Shown one piece after another: positions 1,159-40,611 of a stretch of 46,987 bases of DNA. The DNA is from a virus (taxonomy: Duplodnaviria; Heunggongvirae; Uroviricota; Caudoviricetes): IMG/VR virus record IMGVR_UViG_2526164667_000034; one strand, 5' to 3'. Under the pieces are notes generated by a model. It was not told where the DNA came from and made no database searches. It was given only the letters and a program-made list of their open reading frames with translations. Positions within the stretch are counted from its first letter, which is position 1. The number at the start of each line of letters is the position of its first letter. The position numbers and the translations under genes were made by a program.

Positions 1159-1402
1159 ACCACCTTAACCACTATCGAAGTGCACAAAGCCTTGCAATCC
1201 AGTGCAAAGCTTGTGTGTCTTAGATTTCAGGGTTGCTTTCTTAGGCGTACAGGTTAATGAAATGCATCAAAATACCATTCACATCCACCTCACCCAGTAC
1301 TTCATAACCAACTGTTATCAGTGTATTTCCTCTCAGTTTGGTAAAGTGACAACCCTATGAGTACGAAATCGGTTAGGTGCTATCTGGCTATTGCTCTATT
1401 TA

Positions 1403-2545
1403 TCAAGGTGCTTCTCTAACGGATTCAGTTTTAATTGAAGATACATCTGATTTTTTTTGCATTCTACGAGCGATGGCATGCCCTATGGATACTGATGGTT
1501 TTTCAATAAAGTTATAAGATATGATTGATATAATAAAAGTAGCGCAAATCATAGCTAGAAAAACACCAAATCCTTTACTATCCAATACCCCGTACGGTTT
1601 GAGATATAAAACAGCAAGACTGTATACAACCATATGATTAATGTAAAGTGAATAGGATATTTCACCAACATACGTTAGAATTTTATTTCTATATACATCC
1701 CTACACTTAGAAATAAGGACTATTGGGGCTATAATCATAAATGAATAAGCCCCCCATGCTACAATTCCAGGTCCATTCCTTAACCCTAGGCATAAAAAAA
1801 GCAAGGCAATCGCTAATGTAATATTAAGAAATTGAACAACAGGCATTTTATTTATAAGTCTAGAAGGTAGCCTAATGTAGGCCTCTGCAATAATCATCCC
1901 CAAAATAAAGTCATATATTATTGGATTTGATACAAATACCAGATTACGAATAATTCCATCACCAGATGGCGGTTGCGCGATAGGATTTAGAAAAACATCT
2001 CCGTGAAAGTACAGTTGACCAAGAACGCAAATAATGATGAGAAGAAATGATGCGATCGCAGTTCTATATTTATGGCTGATGCATAATGAAAAAAAGAAAA
2101 CCACATAGAACCAAATTTCATACGTTAGTGTCCATGCAGGTATTATTATACTATAACCTGACCATGGCCCTATAAAATTATAGTCAATTGGTATGAGCAA
2201 GTAGCTCTTTATTATTTGTGATGATGTATATATTGCCTCATAGTTGAGGTATATAGCCAGAGTAAGGATTATAAAGTAAACAGGGTACAACCTAAAAAAA
2301 CGCTTAGCAGCAAACACCATTGGCCGGTTTTTTGCCTTATTCATTGAAGAATAAGTAATGATAAATCCACTTATAACAAAGAATATATCAACACCAACCT
2401 CACCTATACCAAAAAGAATGTCGCCCAAGTCCTTTTGGGCATACACTCCATTTAAATATACTCTAAAGTGAAACGCAATGACTAGAAGTACCGCGATCCC
2501 TCTAAGGACTTGAATAGAGTCTAACTTATTTGTTTTTCTTTCCAT
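1403..2545 (-). CDS. Acyltransferase family 3 membrane protein, putative O-antigen O-acetyltransferase (lysogenic conversion)
   Basis: 380-aa ORF, multi-TM, with N-terminal motif LRGIAVLLVIAFHF typical of OafA/Oac acyltransferases. Very AT-rich (roughly 32% GC). Sits between int and tailspike, where P22-like and Shigella phages carry serotype-converting genes. Confidence 0.75.
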   Translation of the reverse strand: MERKTNKLDSIQVLRGIAVLLVIAFHFRVYLNGVYAQKDLGDILFGIGEVGVDIFFVISGFIITYSSMNKAKNRPMVFAAKRFFRLYPVYFIILTLAIYLNYEAIYTSSQIIKSYLLIPIDYNFIGPWSGYSIIIPAWTLTYEIWFYVVFFFSLCISHKYRTAIASFLLIIICVLGQLYFHGDVFLNPIAQPPSGDGIIRNLVFVSNPIIYDFILGMIIAEAYIRLPSRLINKMPVVQFLNITLAIALLFLCLGLRNGPGIVAWGAYSFMIIAPIVLISKCRDVYRNKILTYVGEISYSLYINHMVVYSLAVLYLKPYGVLDSKGFGVFLAMICATFIISIISYNFIEKPSVSIGHAIARRMQKKSDVSSIKTESVREAP

Positions 2546-2615
2546 ATCAAAATGTGTTTTACTGATTTTTTTTAAACATACCAGATCAAAGTAATCATTT
2601 CAATACATAGGTCTT

Positions 2616-4489
2616 TTAAAAGTTTCCCTCTGATAAGAAAGAATAGGTTCCTGGCCCACCTGGAATATTGCATGTCCATGCCTTTGGTTGTCCTGAAGCA
2701 GGTGCGCTATTGATAACACGCTCACCTATATCCCAGAAACCGGATGTAGGTACTGACGAAAGATAAAATGTTGTTTTTTCAACTTGCAACGCGTTTGATG
2801 GCATTCCATATGCACATAGAGAAGGTGAGTTTATGAGTACATTTCCTGAACCATAATTTCTTATACCAACATTTATAGCTGTATCAGTTTCGTATATATA
2901 CACACCACAACTAACATAGCTCCATTTCCCATTACCAGCTAAAGGTGCTGTAGAGTCTGTTTGTCCTGCACCATTAATTATAAACATAAGTTTTGACGCT
3001 GATCCCTGGTCATTGACCCACGCACCAAACCATACAAATTTCCCTTTTAGTTCTGGTGATTTGTTGAGGTCTATCGTTCGTCCCCAAACTCTATCTCCTG
3101 TCGTAACTAAGAATGAATAATTACCAGCATAGATGTTTTGAGTTTTTATCAATGTTCCTGTAGTTCCAGATGCCGCAGTCCAGAGCAACATATTTCGATC
3201 AAGATAGTTAGCAGTTAACTCTCTGTTCGCAATATCTATTAAATGCGCAGTGTCAGGGTTTTGTGTCGCCGGGTCATAACTACCAACGTATCCGATGGAG
3301 TTCACTGTGTTGTTGGCAAGATATAGCCTGTCAGTAACTTTGGACGAAAGATTATTGTGGTACATTGCTAATAAATTATTCACTTTCGATGCGTCTAATA
3401 ACTGATTATTTTCAATCGTCAGGTTTTTCGCATAGTTCGTGAAAATAAATCCGTCTTGGTTAGGTAGCGCGCTGGCGTAGCCAATCGCGGTCTGCTGATT
3501 CCCGCGAATAGATACGGTATCATTAATTTTTGAAAGGTCAGGAATTAATGTAAAATTGTTCGCGATAAGGTGGATATCCGCACGTACTGTAATAGACTCA
3601 GGTACTCTATACTGGTAACCAATCTCACCGTTGCGTTCCCAATAGTTATCATCAAGGTTAAGGCCTTTAACCCCGTAAGCCAAAAGTCCGTAGAACTTAT
3701 TTTGCTCTATATTGTTGCCATTAACTCTGACGCTCATACCGCCCTCAGCGTAAGCTGGCGTAAGTAAAACTCCACCGGCTCCGTTACCATAGATACGGCT
3801 GTTGATTATATTAATATTATTGCAGTAACCACCAACATTAATACCGTTACCGGCGTTTTGAAACAACCGGCACCCAATGATGTCAATGGAGTAACCGTTA
3901 ACTAATATTGCGTTGTTATTAGTATTAACCACGTCAATATTTTCTATTTTAATGTGGTTGGCTTCAGTAAGACTGATGCCGTTAGCTGCGTAGCCATTTC
4001 CGTCAAGACCAAAGTCCCTGAACTCGCAGAACGTAATTACCCCATCTTGTTGCGTGATTATCGGTGCCGCTGTACCCGTAGAGAAAATTCTGGACTGATA
4101 TGCGCCAGCACCTCGTATCATGGTGACAGTATTCTTAATCGTAATACCAGGGTCAACAATGAACGCCCCCTCTGGTATAACAATCTCAGTTGGCAACGTA
4201 GCATCATCAATAGCCTTCTGAAATGCAGCTTTGTTCTGAGCACCGGTGTTTCCCTCAGCAAACCCGTAGTCTGTAAGCGTCCTCAGGTCGATAGTTAGCT
4301 TTTTTGAGAGAATGGTCGATGTGCTATCGACAAACTGTGGGTTATGCATGACTAGAGAGTCGCCAAGTGAGTGATCTTCGCTCAGGAGATTGCCCTTAAA
4401 CTGATCTGGATCATACTTTAGCACATTCGGAAAATAGAACTGCTGCGCACCGTATGCATCATAAACAGCCATAGAATGGCCTTGCACAG
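2616..4489 (-). pseudogene. Tailspike, C-terminal receptor-binding part (gene interrupted by IS2)
   Basis: Track ORF 2616..4517; its first 9-10 codons (MSGDSGGQS) are translated IS2 terminal sequence. The genuine part starts at [11 protein letters not shown], which continues the P22 gp9 head-binding domain. The long Asn/Gly-rich body fits a beta-helix tailspike and is not P22-like. Confidence 0.85.
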
Positions 4490-4580: not shown

Positions 4581-4946
4581 ATGATTGATGTCTTAGGACC
4601 GGAGAAACGCAGACGGCGTACCACACAGGAAAAGATCGCAATTGTTCAGCAGAGCTTTGAACCAGGGATGACGGTCTCCCTCGTTGCCCGGCAACATGGT
4701 GTAGCAGCCAGCCAGTTATTTCTCTGGCGTAAGCAATACCAGGAAGGAAGTCTTACTGCTGTCGCCGCCGGAGAACAGGTTGTTCCTGCCTCTGAACTTG
4801 CTGCCGCCATGAAGCAGATTAAAGAACTCCAGCGCCTGCTCGGCAAGAAAACGATGGAAAATGAACTCCTCAAAGAAGCCGTTGAATATGGACGGGCAAA
4901 AAAGTGGATAGCGCACGCGCCCTTATTGCCCGGGGATGGGGAGTAA
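4581..4946 (+). CDS. insC: IS2 transposase OrfA (InsC)
   Basis: Track ORF 4536..4946; true start taken at [18 protein letters not shown]... (121 aa), recognised as IS2 InsC. Confidence 0.85.
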
Positions 4947-5809
4947 GCTTAGTCAGCCGTTGTCTCCGGGTGTCGCGTGCGCAGTTGCACGTCATTCTCA
5001 GACGAACCGATGACTGGATGGATGGCCGCCGCAGTCGTCACACTGATGATACGGATGTGCTTCTCCGTATACACCATGTTATCGGAGAGCTGCCCACGTA
5101 TGGTTATCGTCGGGTATGGGCGCTGCTTCGCAGACAGGCAGAACTTGATGGTATGCCTGCGATCAATGCCAAACGTGTTTACCGGATCATGCGCCAGAAT
5201 GCGCTGTTGCTTGAGCGAAAACCTGCTGTACCGCCATCGAAACGGGCACATACAGGCAGAGTGGCTGTGAAAGAAAGTAATCAGCGATGGTGCTCTGACG
5301 GGTTCGAGTTCCGCTGTGATAACGGAGAAAAACTGCGAGTCACGTTCGCGCTGGACTGCTGTGACCGTGAGGCACTGCACTGGGCGGTCACTACGGGCGG
5401 CTTCAACAGTGAAACAGTACAGGACGTCATGCTGGGAGCGGTGGAACGCCGCTTCGGCAACGAGCTTCCGGCGTCTCCAGTAGAGTGGCTGACGGATAAT
5501 GGTTCATGCTACCGGGCTAATGAAACACGGCAGTTTGCCCGGATGTTGGGGCTTGAACCGAAGAGCACGGCGGTGCGGAGTCCGGAGAGTAACGGCATAG
5601 CAGAGAGCTTCGTGAAAACGATAAAGCGTGACTACATCAGTGTCATGCCCAAACCAGACGGGTTAACGGCAGCAAAGAACCTTGCAGAGGCGTTCGAGCA
5701 TTATAACGAATGGCATCCGCATAGTGCACTGGGTTATCGCTCGCCACGGGAATATCTACGGCAGCAAGCCAGTAATGGGTTAAGTGATAACAGGTGTCTG
5801 GAAATATAG
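4904..5809 (+). CDS. insD: IS2 transposase OrfB (InsD), DDE catalytic domain
   Basis: 301-aa ORF overlapping orfA in the -1 frame (frameshift fusion architecture of the IS3 family); recognised as IS2 InsD. Confidence 0.85.
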
Positions 5810-22112: not shown

Positions 22113-23525
22113 TTACCAACCGGAGGATGAGGGAACGTATATTTCTGTTTCTTCGCGGACCAATGCCGGGCAATGCATACACATCATCAGCGCATCAGCC
22201 AGGTTAGGAGATGGGATACCGAGCTTCTGCTTCATTTCGACCTTAGTCATAAGCTCCAGCTTCCCGTTATTATTGAATTTGCGCTGAATCTGCGTCAGTT
22301 CTGCAAACAGCTTCTCCAGCATCTTCTCGCCTATCGCTTCTTTGTCGAAGCTCAGCATGTCGTCGGGGTCTGCATACTCACCGTGGACAACCGCCCGATA
22401 TGTCAGATACAGCCTGTCAGCCAGCGCGTAATAGAATTGCGCTCGCTTATTGCGGAATACATCGCCAATAGTGCGAACGTTGTCGCCCTGTACGACTTCA
22501 TCAGCCCATGCTCCGGCCTGATAAGGCCCATCTTCATCGAATGGCGATTCGCTGCCCTTGAACATCGTGGCGGTAATTTTCTTGCCGGAGAATGCTTCCG
22601 TTGTCTGTCTGCGTAGGCCCGCACCGACGCCATCACCGTCCCACAGGTAATGGTCAGCGCCGTCTTCAATCGCCAGCGAAGTAGCCCAGTCAGCACCCTC
22701 GTTGATGTCCATCAGCAGACCTTCGGCAATGCGCTTAACTACCGAACCGTGACGCGATGCATAACCTTTAGCATCTGGCCCTGTATCTGATGGGTCATGC
22801 GCAGAAACAACCGCACCTTTCGCTTTCCACCCGAGTTTCGTGTGCGCATCGGTTGCGGCTTCAAGCCATTCACGTTTGATGATTGCCATATCACTTGCGC
22901 TTACCGGCTCACCAAGCCAGATGTGACGATACAGTGTCGGATTTCTGCGTTTACACTCTTCCATCTCCAGACGGAGGACTTCAGGAAAATGCGGGTTGTC
23001 GGTGTAGTTCACCGTCAGCAGGCAAATATCATCGGGAGGATTTACGACGAATCGCTGATAGGTATCGTCGAGGATGTTTTTCGGGTTGAAACTTACCCAT
23101 ATTTCAGAGAACGGCTTACGGATGGTTGGAATCAGGATATCCCACGATTCCTTCGTTACCGCTTCCGCTTCTTCCACCCAGCAGATATCAATGCCTTCGA
23201 GCGATTTAATCTTCGTCGGGTTGTTTTTGATGCCGTAGAACATGAATTCAGCATTCGTTCCGAGATGACGAATCATTGAACGCTGAATTTCAAACTCAGC
23301 CGAATACCCTTCACGCTCGATGGTGTCTTCAAGCAACCTGATTACCGAATCGCTGATACTGTTTTGCAGCTCACGAGCGCAAAGAATACGCACAGGCTGC
23401 CGACGCGCCGCTTCAACAAGAAGCCTCGCAATTGCCCATGACTTACCGCTACCTCGACCGCCTTTAGCGACTTTGTAGCGATGCGCCTCAATGAACGGTT
23501 CAAAGATAGGATTAATCGAGGTCAT
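22113..23525 (-). CDS. terL: Terminase large subunit (Sf6 gp2-like)
   Basis: 470-aa ORF with Walker A (KGGRGSGKS) and C-terminal nuclease region; upstream of portal, downstream of terS. Confidence 0.9.
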   Translation of the reverse strand: MTSINPIFEPFIEAHRYKVAKGGRGSGKSWAIARLLVEAARRQPVRILCARELQNSISDSVIRLLEDTIEREGYSAEFEIQRSMIRHLGTNAEFMFYGIKNNPTKIKSLEGIDICWVEEAEAVTKESWDILIPTIRKPFSEIWVSFNPKNILDDTYQRFVVNPPDDICLLTVNYTDNPHFPEVLRLEMEECKRRNPTLYRHIWLGEPVSASDMAIIKREWLEAATDAHTKLGWKAKGAVVSAHDPSDTGPDAKGYASRHGSVVKRIAEGLLMDINEGADWATSLAIEDGADHYLWDGDGVGAGLRRQTTEAFSGKKITATMFKGSESPFDEDGPYQAGAWADEVVQGDNVRTIGDVFRNKRAQFYYALADRLYLTYRAVVHGEYADPDDMLSFDKEAIGEKMLEKLFAELTQIQRKFNNNGKLELMTKVEMKQKLGIPSPNLADALMMCMHCPALVREETEIYVPSSSGW

Positions 23526-23947
23526 TTTCCGAATAGAGTGCTCATCGGTGATGTTTCAATCTGGATTGCGCCGCCGTCTTTGCCGACAAGCTCGTTAGTT
23601 ACCTTGTCGCCATACTTACGGGGATTCATTCGGGCCAGCGCCCATTTGCGGGTATCAACGCGAAGTCTTGCCTTTGCCACCTCGGCGGCATCAGGGATTA
23701 CGTCGTCAGCAATTTCGAATATCTCTTCGAAAATAGAGTCGGCCCGAGTCTCTGTTGCCTTCGCGTACTGGTCACGAAACTCCTGATGTTCAGCCAGCCA
23801 GCGAAAAACTGATGTTTTGCTCGGCATTCCTGGGCGTTCGCAAACTTTGCGCAGACTCTCACCGGAGGAAAGCAATGCGCAAATGTCATTAGCCACCTCC
23901 GGCATATAATCAGAGGGGCGACCACCTTTCTTTTTCTCAGTCGCCAT
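23522..23947 (-). CDS. terS: Terminase small subunit (Sf6 gp1-like)
   Basis: 141-aa MATEKKKGGRPSDYMPEVANDICALLSSGESLRKVCERPGMPSKTSVFRWLAEH..., recalled as highly similar to Sf6 gp1. Confidence 0.85.
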   Translation of the reverse strand: MATEKKKGGRPSDYMPEVANDICALLSSGESLRKVCERPGMPSKTSVFRWLAEHQEFRDQYAKATETRADSIFEEIFEIADDVIPDAAEVAKARLRVDTRKWALARMNPRKYGDKVTNELVGKDGGAIQIETSPMSTLFGK

Positions 23948-25027: not shown

Positions 25028-27459
<2,432 letters not shown>

Positions 27460-28928: not shown

Positions 28929-29732
28929 GTCTTACCCCCAGAAGGGGATCTGTTCAAATTAGGAATTATGGATATGGTCGCTTGAACAAATCCGGGTTAC
29001 GGTTGATTTGTAACGGGTTTGTTCGTGACCGCATTCATGAGCAAATCAGGCGTGGATTGCGCCAACAATACATGCCGCTCATATCACGAAGCCCAGCCAT
29101 TGATGCTGGGTTTTCTTTTTTAAAGCGTACTAGACAACCGTATCCACAGAGTGTCAGCAATGAGTTGGTTAGGTCTGGTTCTTGGTGGAAGTACGCTTTA
29201 AAAAATGGGCTGAGGGTGTAGCACAAAATACTGAGTGAATGGTAAGGATGAACAACGGTTTTGCTCTGGGTGGATTTGGCTGTGGTGGCCGGCGCTGATC
29301 TCCGGCTTGTATACAGGCACCTTGTTCTTCCGAAGCTCTCCTGCGCGCATCAGCCTGCGCATTCACCACACCGGAAAGAGCACTCAGTTGTACCGGCCAG
29401 TTGTGCCACTAAGAAATGCTTTCGCAGACCGTTAAGCTCTTTGCCAGTTCTTTAATGCTCTTACCTGTTGTGTGCCCATTATTAATCACACCGGGCCAGT
29501 GCGCCGAATTTGTTTACAAGGAGTCGGAAGACTTTGCTGACTTACAGGCTATTACGCCGCCATCAGAACAACATCATCGTTTGCATTTATCTTTGTGGTC
29601 AGTTTCTAAAAAACCGCAAAGTCGCCAACTCTGACGAAAACTATCGTTGTGCTGCCACAACGATAAGAGCACTCGGTGCATTTAAGCCAAGCCCCATAAG
29701 GGAGAATGCTCTTACCTGTTACACAGATATAA

Positions 29733-33975: not shown

Positions 33976-34673
33976 ACACTTGCTCCTTTCAGTCCGAACT
34001 TAGCTTTGAGTTCTGCGATCTTCGCCAGAGCCTGTGCACGATTTAGAGGTCTACCGCCCATGACAGGAAGTTGTTTTACTGGTTCAGGGATCGCCTCACC
34101 ACGGTTAATTCTCGCAGTCATATGGACAAGCTCATCTGCGGCCTTACGGCGTAATTCCGCATCAGTAAGCGCATTGGCCCGCATGTTCTGATACAGGTTG
34201 GTAACCAGCCAGTAGTGCGCGTTTGATTTCCACGGATAAGACTCCGCATCCGGATACAGGCCTCGCTTCCGGCAATACTCGTAAACCATATCAACCAGCT
34301 CGCTGACGTTTGGCAGTCCGGCGATAACGGATGCTTCTTCCCGGCACCATGCAACAAACTGCCCGGGTGATGGCAGGAATGGTCGATTCTGCCGACGGGC
34401 TACGCGCATTCCTGCGTTAACCTGTTCCATTGTGGTGATCCCGTTTTCCCGGAAAGCCAGAACCCACTGGCGGCGGATTTCGTTCAGTTCGTTCTGGTCA
34501 CGGTTAGCCAGGCTCGCCGGGAAAGTTGCCAGTAACTGGCTGAACACACCGTTGATGATCTGCGCTACCTGTTGTACCTGCGGCTTTTCGTCGTACTGTT
34601 CCGGCATGTTGTTGGCGATCCGACGCATCTGCTCACGGTCAAAGTTAACCATCTGTGCGGCGATGTTTTTCAT
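33972..34673 (-). CDS. P: Replication protein P (DnaB helicase loader), lambda-type
   Basis: 233 aa MKNIAAQMVNFDREQMRRIANNMPEQYDEKPQVQQVAQIING..., recalled as near-identical to lambda P. Confidence 0.95.
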   Translation of the reverse strand: MKNIAAQMVNFDREQMRRIANNMPEQYDEKPQVQQVAQIINGVFSQLLATFPASLANRDQNELNEIRRQWVLAFRENGITTMEQVNAGMRVARRQNRPFLPSPGQFVAWCREEASVIAGLPNVSELVDMVYEYCRKRGLYPDAESYPWKSNAHYWLVTNLYQNMRANALTDAELRRKAADELVHMTARINRGEAIPEPVKQLPVMGGRPLNRAQALAKIAELKAKFGLKGASV

Positions 34674-36295: not shown

Positions 36296-36358
36296 ATAAC
36301 TCAAGTTATAAAAAATAGCAATAACCTTTGTTATTTTACTTTGGATAACCGTAGTTAT
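36296..36358. promoter_or_regulatory. Right operator OR (three ATAAC-N4-GTTAT palindromes) with divergent pR/pRM
   Basis: ATAACTCAAGTTAT (36296-36309), ATAACCTTTGTTAT (36321-36334), ATAACCGTAGTTAT (36345-36358), spaced about 24 bp, between cro and cI. Confidence 0.75.
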
Positions 36359-36370
36359 AGATTTGTGGGT

Positions 36371-37078
36371 ATGAAAACATTCGCAGAAAGACTAAATGCA
36401 GCCATGAGCTCAGCAGGGGTATCACAATCACAGCTTGCTGACATGGTTGGAATATCTCAGCCAGCCATACAGAAGATGTCGTCCGGTAAAACAAACGGAT
36501 CTCGCAAGATGGTTGAATTAGCCAATGCTTTAAAAGTGCGCCCTGAATGGCTTAGTTCTGGTATTGGTGAAATGAGGGATGGTGCACATGAAGAACCATC
36601 CAATGTCCGTGAGTCATCTTTAAAAGCTGTGGTATGGGAAGACATTAAAAGAAACGATGACGAGTTTGTTGCGTTGCCTCTTCTTAACGTTTCGCTTTCA
36701 GCTGGAAGCGGTAGCTGCGAGCTAGAGGAATCATCGGAGTTCTCTTTGGTTTTCAGAAAGCACTATCTGAAAAAGATGGGAGTATCTGAAAGATCAGCCA
36801 AGCTAGTTAGGGTTGTAGGGCAAAGCATGGAACCAACGCTTCACGATGGCGATGTTGTTGGTGTTAACACGCAAGATACCACCATCAGAGATGGTAAAAC
36901 CTACGCTATTTGCCAGTCTGATTTGTTACGAGTAAAAACATTAATCGCCACCCCTACATCGGTGATAATCAGATCAATAAATCGCGAAGAGTACCCGGAT
37001 GAAGTAATGGATAGAGATGAATTTCATGAAACCGTAAGGATTATTGGCAGAGTATTCTGGTCGTCTCATAGTTGGTAA
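36371..37078 (+). CDS. cI: CI-type prophage repressor (HTH plus LexA-like S24 peptidase domain)
   Basis: Track ORF 36341..37078; start chosen at MKTFAERLN. HTH QSQLADMVGISQPAIQKM and C-terminal autoproteolytic domain GQSMEPTLHDGDVVGV. Confidence 0.9.
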   Translation: MKTFAERLNAAMSSAGVSQSQLADMVGISQPAIQKMSSGKTNGSRKMVELANALKVRPEWLSSGIGEMRDGAHEEPSNVRESSLKAVVWEDIKRNDDEFVALPLLNVSLSAGSGSCELEESSEFSLVFRKHYLKKMGVSERSAKLVRVVGQSMEPTLHDGDVVGVNTQDTTIRDGKTYAICQSDLLRVKTLIATPTSVIIRSINREEYPDEVMDRDEFHETVRIIGRVFWSSHSW

Positions 37079-37118: not shown

Positions 37119-37415
37119 ATGGAATTTCTGATAGTTTTTGTTGTTGTTTTGGTCATCATTCTTTTTGTTTTGCTAAGCATTAGTAAAAAGCTATCTCAAG
37201 TGATTGAACATAGCTCTAATCGCGCAAAAGAAGAAGAGCATCTAATTGATATAAAAGAGATTCTCTCTGATATAAAAATCACATTAGATGAAATAAAATA
37301 CACAACAGATCTAATTGAACAGTATAAAATACCAACCCCAAACGAGAGAAAAGCAATAGATCAATATCGTATTGACTTAGAAATCGACGAAATGCTAAGC
37401 AAAAGAAAAGACTAA
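37119..37415 (+). CDS. Hypothetical small membrane protein co-transcribed with cI (rexAB position)
   Basis: 98-aa ORF 40 bp after the cI stop with GGAGGG RBS. N-terminal TM EFLIVFVVVLVIILFVLLSI, charged helical remainder. Very AT-rich. Followed by a strong terminator. Confidence 0.6.
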   Translation: MEFLIVFVVVLVIILFVLLSISKKLSQVIEHSSNRAKEEEHLIDIKEILSDIKITLDEIKYTTDLIEQYKIPTPNERKAIDQYRIDLEIDEMLSKRKD

Positions 37416-37420
37416 AAACA

Positions 37421-37448
37421 CCCGGCCTCAGCGCCGGGTTTTCTTTTC
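37421..37448 (+). terminator. Rho-independent terminator ending the cI operon
   Basis: CCCGGC-CTCAGC-GCCGGG hairpin followed by TTTTCTTTTCC. Confidence 0.85.
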
Positions 37449-37738: not shown

Positions 37739-37893
37739 ACCAAAGAGAGGTTGGCTTTGGGATTTGATGAATGTGCAGGTCGATGCACTAACGCTTAGCG
37801 GTGAGCACCTGCCTTTGGGGCAGGATGGGTAGCCGCAATCAGGAGATCGACACCTGACATCAAATCACCAAAGTCAATCATCGGAGGTATCCA

Positions 37894-38100
37894 GTGAAAG
37901 CAAGAGAGATTCGCAAACTCAAACGCGCTCGTAAGCACAAAGAGGCGACAGCAAAACGTAAAAATATTGACCGTGTTTCAATGGTGGTTTCGCTAGCAGG
38001 AGCGAATAGGAAGAAGGTTGAATGTGGTTCGTGCTGCCTGCCAAACGTAGCCATTTACGCGGCAGGCTACCGGAAATCAAAACAACTGACGGCGAGGTAA
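37894..38100 (+). CDS. Early antiterminator N, P22 gene 24-like
   Basis: 68-aa ORF (GTG start, GGAGG RBS) with Arg/Lys-rich N-terminus. C-terminus RVSMVVSLAGANRKKVECGSCCLPNVAIYAAGYRKSKQLTAR matches the P22 gp24 C-terminus as recalled. Confidence 0.75.
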   Translation: MKAREIRKLKRARKHKEATAKRKNIDRVSMVVSLAGANRKKVECGSCCLPNVAIYAAGYRKSKQLTAR

Positions 38101-38102
38101 TT

Positions 38103-38465
38103 ATGGGTCAGGAAGAAAAATATGAGCTTAAAAAGCTCATTGGAGAAGACGCCATAGAAGAAATTGCAGCATTAACAACAGCTATAAAGAATATTAGGTA
38201 TGCGCTAAATACGCTTATCTCCTCATGCGACAAAAATAGCAGGGAATTTTTGATACTTGGCGCAGCTCTAGGAATAGTTGATGCGGCAACGCTTCACCTA
38301 ATTACTCATGACGATATTCTTATTGAGCCGTATGAAACATTACTGCTTGTCAGGCAAAAAATGGCTGATGCCGCAGCAAATGGAGACCTTCAACTTTACA
38401 TCGACTTAAGGAAAGTATTAAGGCGAATGGTCAAAACTGAAGGAGATATCCCCCTGACAAAGTAA
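38103..38465 (+). CDS. Hypothetical protein (AT-rich early-left accessory gene)
   Basis: Track ORF 38022..38465; start chosen at MGQEEKYELKK, whose ATG overlaps the N stop (TAATTATG) with GAGG RBS. No family recognised. Confidence 0.55.
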   Translation: MGQEEKYELKKLIGEDAIEEIAALTTAIKNIRYALNTLISSCDKNSREFLILGAALGIVDAATLHLITHDDILIEPYETLLLVRQKMADAAANGDLQLYIDLRKVLRRMVKTEGDIPLTK

Positions 38466-38495
38466 GGGGGTGAAGAGGCCATTTCAGGAATAAAA

Positions 38496-38990
38496 TTAAT
38501 AATTTGTCAGCGGCGGTACATATACAGGCTTAGGGTCTGGCGCTCTATACATCCGGTATTCATTCTTACAGCGAGGACATGAATGCACAAAGAACCCATT
38601 AGATTTTATAGTAACCGTGCTTGGTTGAAGTATCGATATTTTATGTTCGCCGAAGCAATGTGCACAAAGGTTATGCTGCTGAATAGAAGGATCGGAATGA
38701 CTCTTAGGTCGATACACGACAGAACCACCTTCAGTTGTATGAAGTTCATAATTCTCAGCTTGCACAACAAACATCTTGATTTTTCTATTTTCATCTCGAA
38801 GCTTCATTGCGATCTCCTTCTCGGCCTGATAAAGGCCAGAGAGCTCCGCATTAAGCATCTGTAAGTCAGTTATTCTTTGGTGTAGATCACCAATAGCTTT
38901 AGCGATAACAGCATCGTCTCTGGTTTCTTTTATTGTCTTCAGCAGATCATAAGCCTGTTTCGCGGCAGTTATACCAGATAACACATCCAT
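38496..38990 (-). CDS. Hypothetical coiled-coil plus C-terminal zinc-ribbon protein, opposite strand to the pL operon
   Basis: 164-aa ORF; N-terminal heptad-rich region and C-terminal CAHCFGEHK...CPRCKNEY. AT-rich. Upstream region carries direct repeats. Confidence 0.6.
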   Translation of the reverse strand: MDVLSGITAAKQAYDLLKTIKETRDDAVIAKAIGDLHQRITDLQMLNAELSGLYQAEKEIAMKLRDENRKIKMFVVQAENYELHTTEGGSVVYRPKSHSDPSIQQHNLCAHCFGEHKISILQPSTVTIKSNGFFVHSCPRCKNEYRMYRAPDPKPVYVPPLTNY

Positions 38991-39001
38991 ATAAATTACT
39001 C

Positions 39002-39056
39002 TCTTACTGTAGGGGTAAGAGGATTTTACTATTTTTCTCGCTGTAGGGGTACACGA
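39002..39056. repeat. Direct repeat CTGTAGGGGTA x2 upstream of opposite-strand gene
   Basis: TACTGTAGGGGTAAGAGG (about 39002-39021) and GCTGTAGGGGTACACGAG (about 39038-39056), 36 bp apart, in the 200-bp region between divergent genes. Confidence 0.5.
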
Positions 39057-39190
39057 GAACCACCGAGCCTGATGTGGTTAAAAGACAGGCACAATCTTTA
39101 CTACCGCAAGCCACGCAGTGAAATGGGTGTGACTTGTGTTGGTCGCCAGAAAATGAAATTAGACAGCAAACCACTTATTTGAGGTGAGAT

Positions 39191-39661
39191 ATGACAAAAT
39201 CATGGAGCGTACCTTTTCCTGAATCAGAAACTGAACATGATGGAATGCCTGTTTTCTGGAGATTCCAGGCGACAGTTGAAGAAGATGGAATCAAAATATT
39301 CGCACTTCAATATATAGCTTTTCATCAGACAGAGCATTATGCATGGTTGGTTCCTGCGTATTGGATTGTTAATTTTAAACCAGCACCAAATCAGTGGTTA
39401 CAGGAATGGAAACAAAAGAGAAATAGATATGCAATTAAGAAAGTAGCAAAAAATGCAGAAAGATCTTTTGCATTCCCAACGAAGAAACTTGCTATTGAAA
39501 GTTTATTGCGCCGGAAGAAATACCATTTAATGAGAATAAAACAAGATTTGGCTGTTGTATCAACTCTTGTTGATGGGATGAAAAATATTGATACATCAAC
39601 ACCAGATATTGAATATAACTTTGGACACAACCAAGAAACAGAAAATTGGGTATTCTACTAG
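39191..39661 (+). CDS. Hypothetical protein (AT-rich accessory gene)
   Basis: 156-aa ORF with GAGGTGAG RBS, Trp/basic-rich; no family recognised. Followed by a terminator. Confidence 0.55.
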   Translation: MTKSWSVPFPESETEHDGMPVFWRFQATVEEDGIKIFALQYIAFHQTEHYAWLVPAYWIVNFKPAPNQWLQEWKQKRNRYAIKKVAKNAERSFAFPTKKLAIESLLRRKKYHLMRIKQDLAVVSTLVDGMKNIDTSTPDIEYNFGHNQETENWVFY

Positions 39662-39687
39662 GCCGCATAGTCGGCCTTTATTTTTGG
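39661..39687 (+). terminator. Rho-independent terminator after orf156
   Basis: GGCCG-CATAGT-CGGCC hairpin overlapping the stop codon, followed by TTTATTTTTGG. Confidence 0.6.
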
Positions 39688-39707
39688 CATAAACAACAGA
39701 GGCTAAC

Positions 39708-39998
39708 ATGGAATTTAAAGGTACTGAAGGTAAGTGGGAAATAATGATGGATGGCGATGAGATTAAAATCATCCAGGCAGACTCACTTGAAAATGGCGCA
39801 GGCTGGCGTTCGTATATTGCAATCTGTGAGGAAGTTCAATGTATTGAAGATGCCAATCTAATAGCGGCAGCACCTGACCTTTTAAATGCCCTGAAAGCGA
39901 TGCTAAACAAGGCATACAAGCAAAACTGGAATGACCATTATCCTGATGAAGTATCGAAAGCACAGTCAGCAATTAGCAAAGCTCTTGGGGAAGAATGA
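39708..39998 (+). CDS. Hypothetical protein
   Basis: 96-aa acidic ORF with GAGG-type RBS; no family recognised. Confidence 0.5.
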   Translation: MEFKGTEGKWEIMMDGDEIKIIQADSLENGAGWRSYIAICEEVQCIEDANLIAAAPDLLNALKAMLNKAYKQNWNDHYPDEVSKAQSAISKALGEE

Positions 39999-40156
39999 TG
40001 AATAAGAAATACATTGTTGAAGTTATAGAGCGAGAAACGAAAGAAGTAATTAAACATTTCGAATTTGATAATTATAGAAAAGCTGACCACGTCGAAGAAG
40101 GATTGTTGCGACAAAGTAATCTCGAAAAATTTGATGTTGTCATGCGATGCGAATAA
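39995..40156 (+). CDS. Small hypothetical protein
   Basis: Hand-translated about 53 aa (MMNKKYIVEVIERETKEVIKHFEFDNYRKADHVEEGLLRQSNLEKFDVVMRCE), ATGA overlap with upstream stop. Coordinates +/-2 nt. Confidence 0.4.
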   Translation: MMNKKYIVEVIERETKEVIKHFEFDNYRKADHVEEGLLRQSNLEKFDVVMRCE

Positions 40157-40249
40157 GCGCCTATAGCAGATTTACGAGTCTGCTATGTGAGCAATGTCGC
40201 TCGTAACTAAACAGGAGCCGACTTGTTCTGATTATTGGAAATCTTCTTT

Positions 40250-40275
40250 GCCCTCCGATGTGAGGGCTTTTTTAT
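40250..40275 (+). terminator. Rho-independent terminator within the early-left operon
   Basis: GCCCTC-CGATGTG-AGGGC hairpin followed by TTTTTTAT. Confidence 0.7.
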
Positions 40276-40339
40276 ATGCATACCAATAACGCTTCACTCG
40301 AGGCGTTTTCGTTATGCAATCAAATATAAGGAGTTACCC

Positions 40340-40474
40340 ATGATGCACTTTCAGCTCGCGGGTAGCGGCGTCATGTCCGCTTTCTACCCGCACGAATCTG
40401 AATTATCACGCCGAGTTAAACAATTAATTAGAGCAGCAAAGAAACAACTGGAGGCGTTATGCGCAATGAAATAG
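40340..40474 (+). CDS. cIII: CIII-like protein (putative FtsH/HflB inhibitor)
   Basis: 44 aa MMHFQLAGSGVMSAFYPHESELSRRVKQLIRAAKKQLEALCAMK with AAGGAG RBS. Shares the x-A-G ... SE-L ... amphipathic helix pattern and operon position of lambda CIII. Confidence 0.6.
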   Translation: MMHFQLAGSGVMSAFYPHESELSRRVKQLIRAAKKQLEALCAMK

Positions 40475-40611
40475 CCATTAATCACCAGATGCTTCGTGCG
40501 GCACAAAACAAAGCAGTAATAGCCAGATTTATTGGTGATTCAAAAATGTGGCTTGAAGCAAATAAAGCGATGAAATCAGCTATCAACCTTCCGTGGTATC
40601 GCAGGAAATGA
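40459..40611 (+). CDS. Small hypothetical protein (kil-position)
   Basis: Hand-translated about 50 aa (MRNEIAINHQMLRAAQNKAVIARFIGDSKMWLEANKAMKSAINLPWYRR...), overlapping the cIII end. Coordinates approximate. Confidence 0.35.
   Translation: MRNEIAINHQMLRAAQNKAVIARFIGDSKMWLEANKAMKSAINLPWYRRK

Follow-up and report, generated by a model that had tools for sequence, protein, structure and literature searches.

A divergent Rip1-family gene behind a sieB-type promoter in the N–cIII interval of an Escherichia coli prophage

We analysed the interval between the N-like antiterminator gene and cIII (positions 38103–40156) in IMG/VR virus record IMGVR_UViG_2526164667_000034, a stretch of 46,987 nucleotides (hereafter the window) that is an E. 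coli prophage. The interval corresponds to the ral/sieB/gene-17 region of lambda and P22, as an initial annotation made from the DNA letters had recognised, and it holds the five open reading frames (ORFs) which that annotation had listed. Four of them (an hkaQ-like ORF, orf156, orf96 and orf53) lie on the plus strand, along which the early-left operon runs in the given orientation, and the fifth, at 38496–38990, lies on the opposite strand and encodes a protein of 164 aa. The description of the segment as markedly AT-rich holds relative to the window as a whole (39.4% against 46.8% GC; lowest 3.7% of 2-kb windows), though the most AT-rich part of the window is found elsewhere, at ~1400–3450 (~36% GC). 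We identify the antisense gene, from its sequence, as a new and divergent member of the Rip1 defence family, which has itself been characterised very recently, and consider it probable that this is a single-protein defence gene expressed in the lysogen.

The product of the antisense gene consists of an N-terminal helical, coiled-coil half and a C-terminal four-cysteine zinc ribbon, an architecture noted at the outset that the modelled helices and the invariance of the cysteines bear out. The CxxC...CxxC residues (C109, C112, C138 and C141) are unchanged in 21 homologues of 45–79% identity from Salmonella, Serratia, Yersinia, Pantoea, Hafnia, Edwardsiella, Sodalis and Enterobacter. A profile of this alignment retrieved a single significant match among all PDB sequences, chain L of entry 9oox (E = 1.5e-17, residues 17–148), the 164-aa 'ring interacting pore 1 (Rip1)' of Escherichia phage HK446. 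Single-sequence phmmer against the 9oox Rip1 (E = 1.8e-10), BLASTP against the HK446 gene product (28% identity, E = 4e-14) and hhalign against HK446 Rip1 (probability 98.7% over 146 columns) gave the same assignment, and the window protein, HK446 Rip1 and gp30 of Pseudomonas phage JBD30 all match PHROG 1244 from end to end. Nine distant members including Rip1, spanning E. coli to Pseudomonas and Pelagibaca phages, keep the four cysteines, L121 and Q122 (in a SILQ-type motif) and Y81 invariant. The family comprises 2155 representatives at 50% identity (E ≤ 0.001), nearly all of 140–190 aa.

Within this family the window protein is 99.4% identical to HkaP of phage HK620 (AAK28864), to which the HK620 authors gave the annotation 'putative superinfection exclusion protein' in 2001; our literature searches found no characterisation of hkaP. 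Of 5426 complete E. coli genomes, 66 carry an intact hkaP-type gene of at least 99% identity and 96 an HK446-type gene. Scans of all five ORF products against Pfam, NCBIfam and PADLOC returned nothing credible; for PADLOC-DB v2 (2023, older than Rip1) the best E value was 0.0035, to a Cas10 model that is not credible. The earlier statement that the ORFs belong to no recognisable family stands for these three collections and fails in two respects: all five match PHROG families, to which no functions are assigned, and the antisense protein matches 9oox.

An AlphaFold2 (AF2) model of the protein (predicted local distance difference test, pLDDT, 81) contains helices at residues 3–22 and 26–78, the second of them long, followed by short strands, and as modelled it shares with Rip1 a fold of long N-terminal helices and then a small beta/zinc-ribbon domain. 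Foldseek superimposed the model on chain M of 9oox (E = 8e-7, target-normalised template modelling (TM) score 0.75, root-mean-square deviation 3.2 over 124 columns); the next non-Rip1 match in the PDB had an E value of 0.46, with no other entry below 0.4, and a fold search of BFVD with the Rip1-like model gave one unnamed relative and nothing further. The function of the Rip1 family is taken here from the PDB entry, a conference report and a preprint. Entry 9oox ('Cryo-EM Structure of the Escherichia phage HK446 Rip1 in complex with the Enterobacteria phage T6 small terminase', released 2026-02-04) shows 12 Rip1 chains capping an 11-subunit ring of T6 small terminase, and Rip1 is placed among systems that 'sense the... 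small terminase subunit' (bioRxiv 10.64898/2026.04.30.721860). Another account would make the antisense ORF a nucleic-acid-binding regulator with a zinc ribbon, or else a relic without expression, and weak CxxC...CxxC matches to the SprT and TniQ zinc ribbons point towards a regulator. These matches are sub-threshold, however (E > 0.01, under the curated cut-offs), and conservation at 45–79% identity across genera, the invariant motifs and the specific match to Rip1 speak against this account, which we consider highly improbable.

The genomic setting of the two genes is also shared. HK446_037, the Rip1 gene, is a single prophage gene that abuts N, is directed against pL and is situated upstream of cIII, an arrangement that the window repeats; a 2012 GenBank note calls it 'similar to HK620p16'. 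The 104 bp upstream of the window gene, leader included, are 99% identical to those upstream of the HK446 Rip1 gene, though the proteins share 28% identity. The distal 62 bp of this region are 100% identical to lambda 34392–34453 and 98% identical to P22 29648–29709, and each of these blocks immediately precedes sieB, a gene that in lambda as in P22 adjoins N on the strand opposite pL. The P22 record places the sieB promoter at 29690–29720 and the start of the sieB RNA at 29727; this position is the A of the second copy of the motif ACCCCTACAG, and the first copy overlaps the −35 element (TGTACC). Transferred to the window, the P22 assignment yields the promoter elements of Table 1, with a predicted 26-nt leader. 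The gene thus appears to be what the initial annotation had proposed, an accessory gene with a promoter of its own, and it sits at the sieB position behind a sieB-type promoter, a point which that annotation overlooked. Because homology is near full length and fold, locus and promoter are shared, we name it a Rip1-family gene.

Table 1 Features of the N–cIII interval and of its surroundings in the window
Feature	Position	Strand	Remarks
Small terminase, Sf6-type	23522–23947	−	
cI-like repressor	36341–37078		First in early-left order
98-aa membrane ORF	37119–37415	+	Directly after the repressor gene
Strong bidirectional terminator	37420–37439		After the 98-aa ORF
N-like antiterminator ORF	37894–38100	+	68 aa; GTG start; GGAGG Shine–Dalgarno sequence; upstream boundary of the slot
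hkaQ-like ORF	38103–38465	+	120 aa; starts 2 nt past the N stop; PHROG 7374, E = 1e-79
Rip1-family gene, HK620 hkaP type	38496–38990	−	164 aa; convergent on pL transcription
sieB-type promoter cassette	38991–39095	−	By homology to P22
Shine–Dalgarno sequence AAGAGAG	39005–38999	−	In the 26-nt leader
Motif copy 2	39017–39007	−	Contains the predicted start
Predicted +1 A	39016	−	Transferred from the P22 mapping
−10 element TAAAAT	39028–39023	−	By homology to P22
Motif copy 1 (TACCCCTACAG)	39051–39041	−	Overlaps the −35 element
−35 element TGTACC	39053–39048	−	By homology to P22
Upstream hairpin	39090–39067	−	By homology to P22
orf156	39191–39661	+	PHROG 1636, E = 3e-111; conserved in lambdoid and Shiga toxin phages
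Terminator-like hairpin AGGCCGCATAGTCGGCCT and T-run	39660–39687	+	After orf156; hairpin and T-run core 39660–39677; consensus match only
orf96	39708–39998	+	PHROG 1273, E = 2e-30
orf53	39995–40156	+	PHROG 6949, E = 9e-40; start overlaps the orf96 stop (ATGA)
Two terminator-like hairpins	40250–40307	+	Before cIII; consensus scan
cIII	40340–40474		PF08134, E = 2e-30; downstream boundary of the slot

The direct repeat that had been noticed in the upstream region is part of this promoter. CTGTAGGGGTA occurs exactly twice upstream of the gene, at 39007–39017 and 39041–39051, where 0.29 matches per window are expected by chance at one mismatch or fewer and two or more matches arose in 2 of 100 shuffles; it extends to 14 of 16 nt with a spacing of 34 bp. 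Both copies are kept in lambda, P22, HK620, HK446 and Salmonella, Pantoea and Yersinia prophages, so the repeat is not a chance occurrence. A hairpin around copy 2 was considered as a means of sequestering the Shine–Dalgarno sequence. We discarded this idea for promoter-initiated transcripts, since the start mapped in P22 falls within the loop; the hairpin could still play a part in read-through or antisense RNA. Folding of the intergenic region (z = −0.65) and of the region after the stop codon (z = −0.70) gave no significant structure.

Before Rip1-family genes of Salmonella, Pantoea, Yersinia and other coliphages, both motif copies, the −10 element and the upstream hairpin are conserved. 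The copies (ACCCCTACAG) lie 33–35 bp apart with the −10 element between them, and the hairpin follows the pattern GCCTG-N14-CAGGC, with compensatory CCGGG/CCCGG variants. The cassette is located next to N in Salmonella and Pantoea and between Q and holin genes in Yersinia, and 987 of the 5426 complete E. coli genomes contain its 62-bp promoter block. We scanned viral contigs for CCCCTACA-N24-28-CCCCTACA and pooled the matches listed with loci from earlier comparisons, which yielded at least 65 full cassettes. Among the 65 tallied, the downstream cargo was of the SieB family at 36 loci, of the Rip1 family at 26, of PHROG 19636 (80 aa) at two (L110 and L023) and of PHROG 3983 (168 aa) at one (L090), counts that are biased by the mode of locus collection. 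By association, the PHROG 19636 and PHROG 3983 proteins are candidate defence genes. Since the same repeats precede such unrelated cargo, they are not operators specific to the zinc-ribbon protein, and the suggestion that the gene regulates itself through them fails.

Rip1-family genes also occur as stand-alone antisense genes, in a lysogeny-type position, in eight further phage or prophage contexts (Salmonella, Pantoea, Yersinia, Pseudomonas, Pelagibaca and other coliphages). Members are found in the Mu-like Pseudomonas aeruginosa phages JBD30 (gp30), D3112 (orf25), DMS3 and MP38, and JBD30 gp30 is a single gene on the strand opposite to both of its neighbours.

Two observations bear on how the motif copies may be read. 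In PhiR29_2 (L015, ~2430–2480), before a Rip1-family gene, both copies read CCCCAACAAC and not CCCCTACAG, and this matching change suggests that one factor reads both copies. Inverted repeats of at least 6 bp flank the motif copies more often than in shuffles (29% against 5%, and 25% against 3%); these repeats are not universal, and the sequences compared are related. A wider proposal, which we put forward as possible but rather doubtful, is that the cassette is a portable device which keeps any abortive-infection cargo (SieB, Rip1 clades, PHROG 3983 or PHROG 19636) on in lysogens and silences it in the lytic cycle of the carrier, the silencing agent being either a shared factor on the two copies or an antisense RNA of the sas kind with the motif in hairpin loops, and that the hkaP clade is a specificity variant sensing another set of terminases or rings than HK446 Rip1.

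Homology over the full length and the conservation of length, motifs, locus and promoter favour the overall mechanism of HK446 Rip1. Transcription from the sieB-type promoter at ~39016, against a repressed pL, would allow the protein to be made in the lysogen, if the P22 mapping applies to the window strain. Once the small-terminase ring of an infecting phage assembles, the protein would oligomerise on it, by analogy with HK446 Rip1, possibly as a ~12-mer if the complex with T6 small terminase is a guide, and the oligomer, as a membrane pore or as a packaging block, would kill or disable the cell and so abort the infection before progeny are released. During lytic growth of the prophage itself, N-antiterminated transcription from pL would read antisense through the gene and its promoter and would probably lower expression. 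P22 reportedly escapes SieB through antisense RNA and Esc, which makes an analogous antisense escape plausible here.

Several points weigh against this interpretation. Overall identity to HK446 Rip1 is just 26–28% and is lowest, at 19%, in the N-terminal 78 residues; HK446 Rip1 has an N-terminal extension of 11 residues and a Gly/Ala-rich, moderately hydrophobic segment, both absent from the window protein, whose maximum Kyte–Doolittle (KD) hydropathy over 19 aa is 0.6, against 1.28 in HK446 Rip1. If that segment lines the pore in HK446 Rip1, the effector step may differ here. Another ring, or another family of terminases, could also serve as the trigger. The −35 element TGTACC is poor and stands 19 nt from the −10 element, a generic promoter scan is silent on the cassette, and the promoter is assigned to the window gene from the P22 annotation, not from the window strain. 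Antisense shut-off by pL transcription is a conjecture, and we know of no experiments on the hkaP clade.

The same divergence is compatible with a protein that has the Rip1 fold and another job, either acting on another ring (a portal, a different terminase family or a host ring) or forming no pore, for example by sequestering terminase and thus blocking packaging. The 19% identity of the N-terminal half and the missing Gly/Ala segment would fit such a role, as would the size and diversity of the family, with at least two N-terminal styles, and the position of the least conserved stretches of the hkaP clade between and after the cysteine pairs, as expected under diversifying specificity. Against it stand the full-length homology and the conservation of length, motifs, locus and promoter, and no positive sign of another target was found; we regard this alternative as unlikely. 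Under the preferred reading of the gene as a Rip1-type defence gene, there may still be differences in target range and even in the effector step, because the N-terminal half has diverged and both the extension and the Gly/Ala segment are absent.

Position, orientation and promoter cassette with both ACCCCTACAG copies are shared with sieB of lambda and P22, and the proposed logic, expression in the lysogen and action on a superinfecting phage in the middle of its lytic cycle, would be alike by analogy. Homology to SieB itself was rejected: hhalign against lambda SieB gave a probability of 0.3%, and the PHROG scan returned only 1244, not 6399 or 1301. SieB is a hydrophobic membrane protein (maximum KD 1.73 in lambda and 3.01 in P22), unlike the window protein. 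P22 makes Esc from within sieB as well as the antisense RNA sas, whereas no internal Esc-like product is evident in the window gene. Ral and P22 gene 17 are other occupants of the N–cIII slot which the five ORFs share, and the ORFs had no Pfam match to the Ral or gene 17 families and PHROG matches only to families of unassigned function. At the protein level the ORFs thus do not match the known Ral, SieB and gene 17 families, and it is the position and the promoter that the antisense gene has in common with sieB.

The initial annotation had suggested that the whole AT-rich segment is a single acquired multi-gene defence module, self-regulated by the zinc-ribbon protein through the repeats. The guess of a defence role stands for one gene of the five, whose closest characterised relative is the prophage anti-phage protein Rip1, and not for a module. 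Low GC throughout the segment, the lack of Pfam, NCBIfam and PADLOC assignments for all five ORFs and the occurrence of the exact five-gene arrangement in only 4 complete E. coli genomes would suit a module, but the pieces occur separately in HK620, Shiga toxin (Stx) phages, mEp043 and O26:H11, Rip1-family genes are found on their own in HK446, Salmonella, Pantoea and Yersinia, and the repeats are also located in front of SieB and further unrelated cargo. A self-regulated module is in our view very improbable. Because its pieces are found apart in other phages, the 'island' is better described as a mosaic, and sequence comparison resolves 38103–40156 into at least three independently moving pieces (hkaQ with hkaP, orf156 with its terminator, and orf96 with orf53), as is typical of this lambdoid region. 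Cassette swapping across related phages, for which the initial annotation had proposed a comparison, is borne out.

HK620 carries the same gene as the window with the same neighbours N, hkaQ and promoter, and differs in that it contains only hkaQ and hkaP: hkaP leads straight to the tL2 terminators and then cIII, with no orf156, orf96 or orf53 between. orf156 is ~98% identical in many Stx phages that are without the other pieces, and orf96 and orf53 occur together in mEp043 at 90% identity. O26:H11 strain 11368 has, in place of orf96 and orf53, a gene annotated 'superinfection exclusion protein', which by position corresponds to P22 gene 17. No phage record contains 80% or more of 39191–40156. 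hkaQ precedes the hkaP clade in E. coli, unlike HK446 Rip1, and is missing next to the family members of HK446, Salmonella and Pantoea; a partnership is therefore not obligatory. We take the hkaQ-like ORF, orf156, orf96 and orf53, from these comparisons, to be independent mosaic genes of the pL operon and not partners of the Rip1-type gene.

These assignments give a name and a testable mechanism to hkaP, a gene labelled 'hypothetical' ever since the sequencing of HK620 in 2001 and present in prophages of O26 and other Shiga toxin-producing E. coli. They further describe the lambda sieB position as a cargo slot with a fixed promoter, at which unrelated abortive-infection genes are exchanged, and offer in the 28%-identical clade a natural experiment on how the target specificity of Rip1 diversifies.

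The four plus-strand ORFs yielded no matches in PDB sequence searches. The hkaQ-like ORF has one hydrophobic stretch (KD 2.0) and is represented by only 5 protein clusters in 5.8 billion sequences, too few for a useful alignment. A 147-aa ORF at 38022–38465 begins inside N in another frame and reads through the same region, and public databases list a 148-aa 'antitermination N domain protein'; the true start of the hkaQ-like ORF is likely the ATG at 38103 with its GAGG Shine–Dalgarno sequence, and the database name is an annotation artefact. orf156 is represented by 33 protein clusters across Enterobacterales, and its AF2 model (20-sequence alignment) reached a pLDDT of 57, too low to assign a fold. 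The terminator that had been reported after this gene corresponds to a hairpin and T-run which match by consensus only. The 41 bp at 39660–39700 recur at 100% identity in many Stx1 and Stx2 phages that otherwise lack any match to 39191–40156, orf156 included, and on this comparison represent a conserved mosaic junction or terminator. RefSeq/PGAP annotation of the 100%-identical DEC9B prophage includes four of the five ORFs and leaves out the 53-aa ORF.

Upstream of the slot, the N-like ORF matches Pfam N_peptide (E = 7e-16, profile positions 44–100 of 100), and BLASTP aligned its last 31 aa, and no more of it, to HK620 N at 84% identity; this end matches an HK620- or H-19B-type N. PGAP labels the ORF a partial pseudogene. 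Its Lys/Arg-rich N-terminus and the DNA at 37790–38035 had no close match in the phage collection, and the ORF has either a novel RNA-binding arm or is a damaged N. Operators, pL and a boxA-like GCTCTTTAACA lie between it and the 98-aa ORF, whose product has a single very hydrophobic N-terminal helix; this ORF (30% GC, PHROG 18389) occupies a rexAB/BstA-type slot. Downstream, the two hairpins before cIII are by position likely the counterparts of tL2A and tL2B annotated in HK620, and cIII is followed by kil, Erf and an anti-RecBCD gene.

The region 37800–40500 is 100% identical to prophages of strains DEC9B, F2_407_2_2, 7_33_46A and 99_0288 and, piecewise, ~99.7% identical to prophages of O26:H11 strains. 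The packaging and head genes of the window are of the P22/Sf6 type, with a large terminase, a P22-type portal and a P22-type coat protein. Three insertion sequence (IS) elements are present at 4904–5809, 19962–20852 and 25591–27392, two of them IS3-like (rve) and one IS21-like (IstA/IstB); one adjoins a tailspike gene that keeps only the end of its head-binding domain, and one lies in or beside a shortened P22-type portal gene. Although its Rip1-type gene is intact, the prophage as a whole is probably defective. No tRNA genes were found within the window, and the integrase is encoded at base 1. Beside it, within the 2 kb of the window that are richest in AT (~36% GC), the minus strand at 1403–2545 encodes an acyltransferase of the Acyl_transf_3 family, likely an O-antigen-modifying lysogenic-conversion gene.

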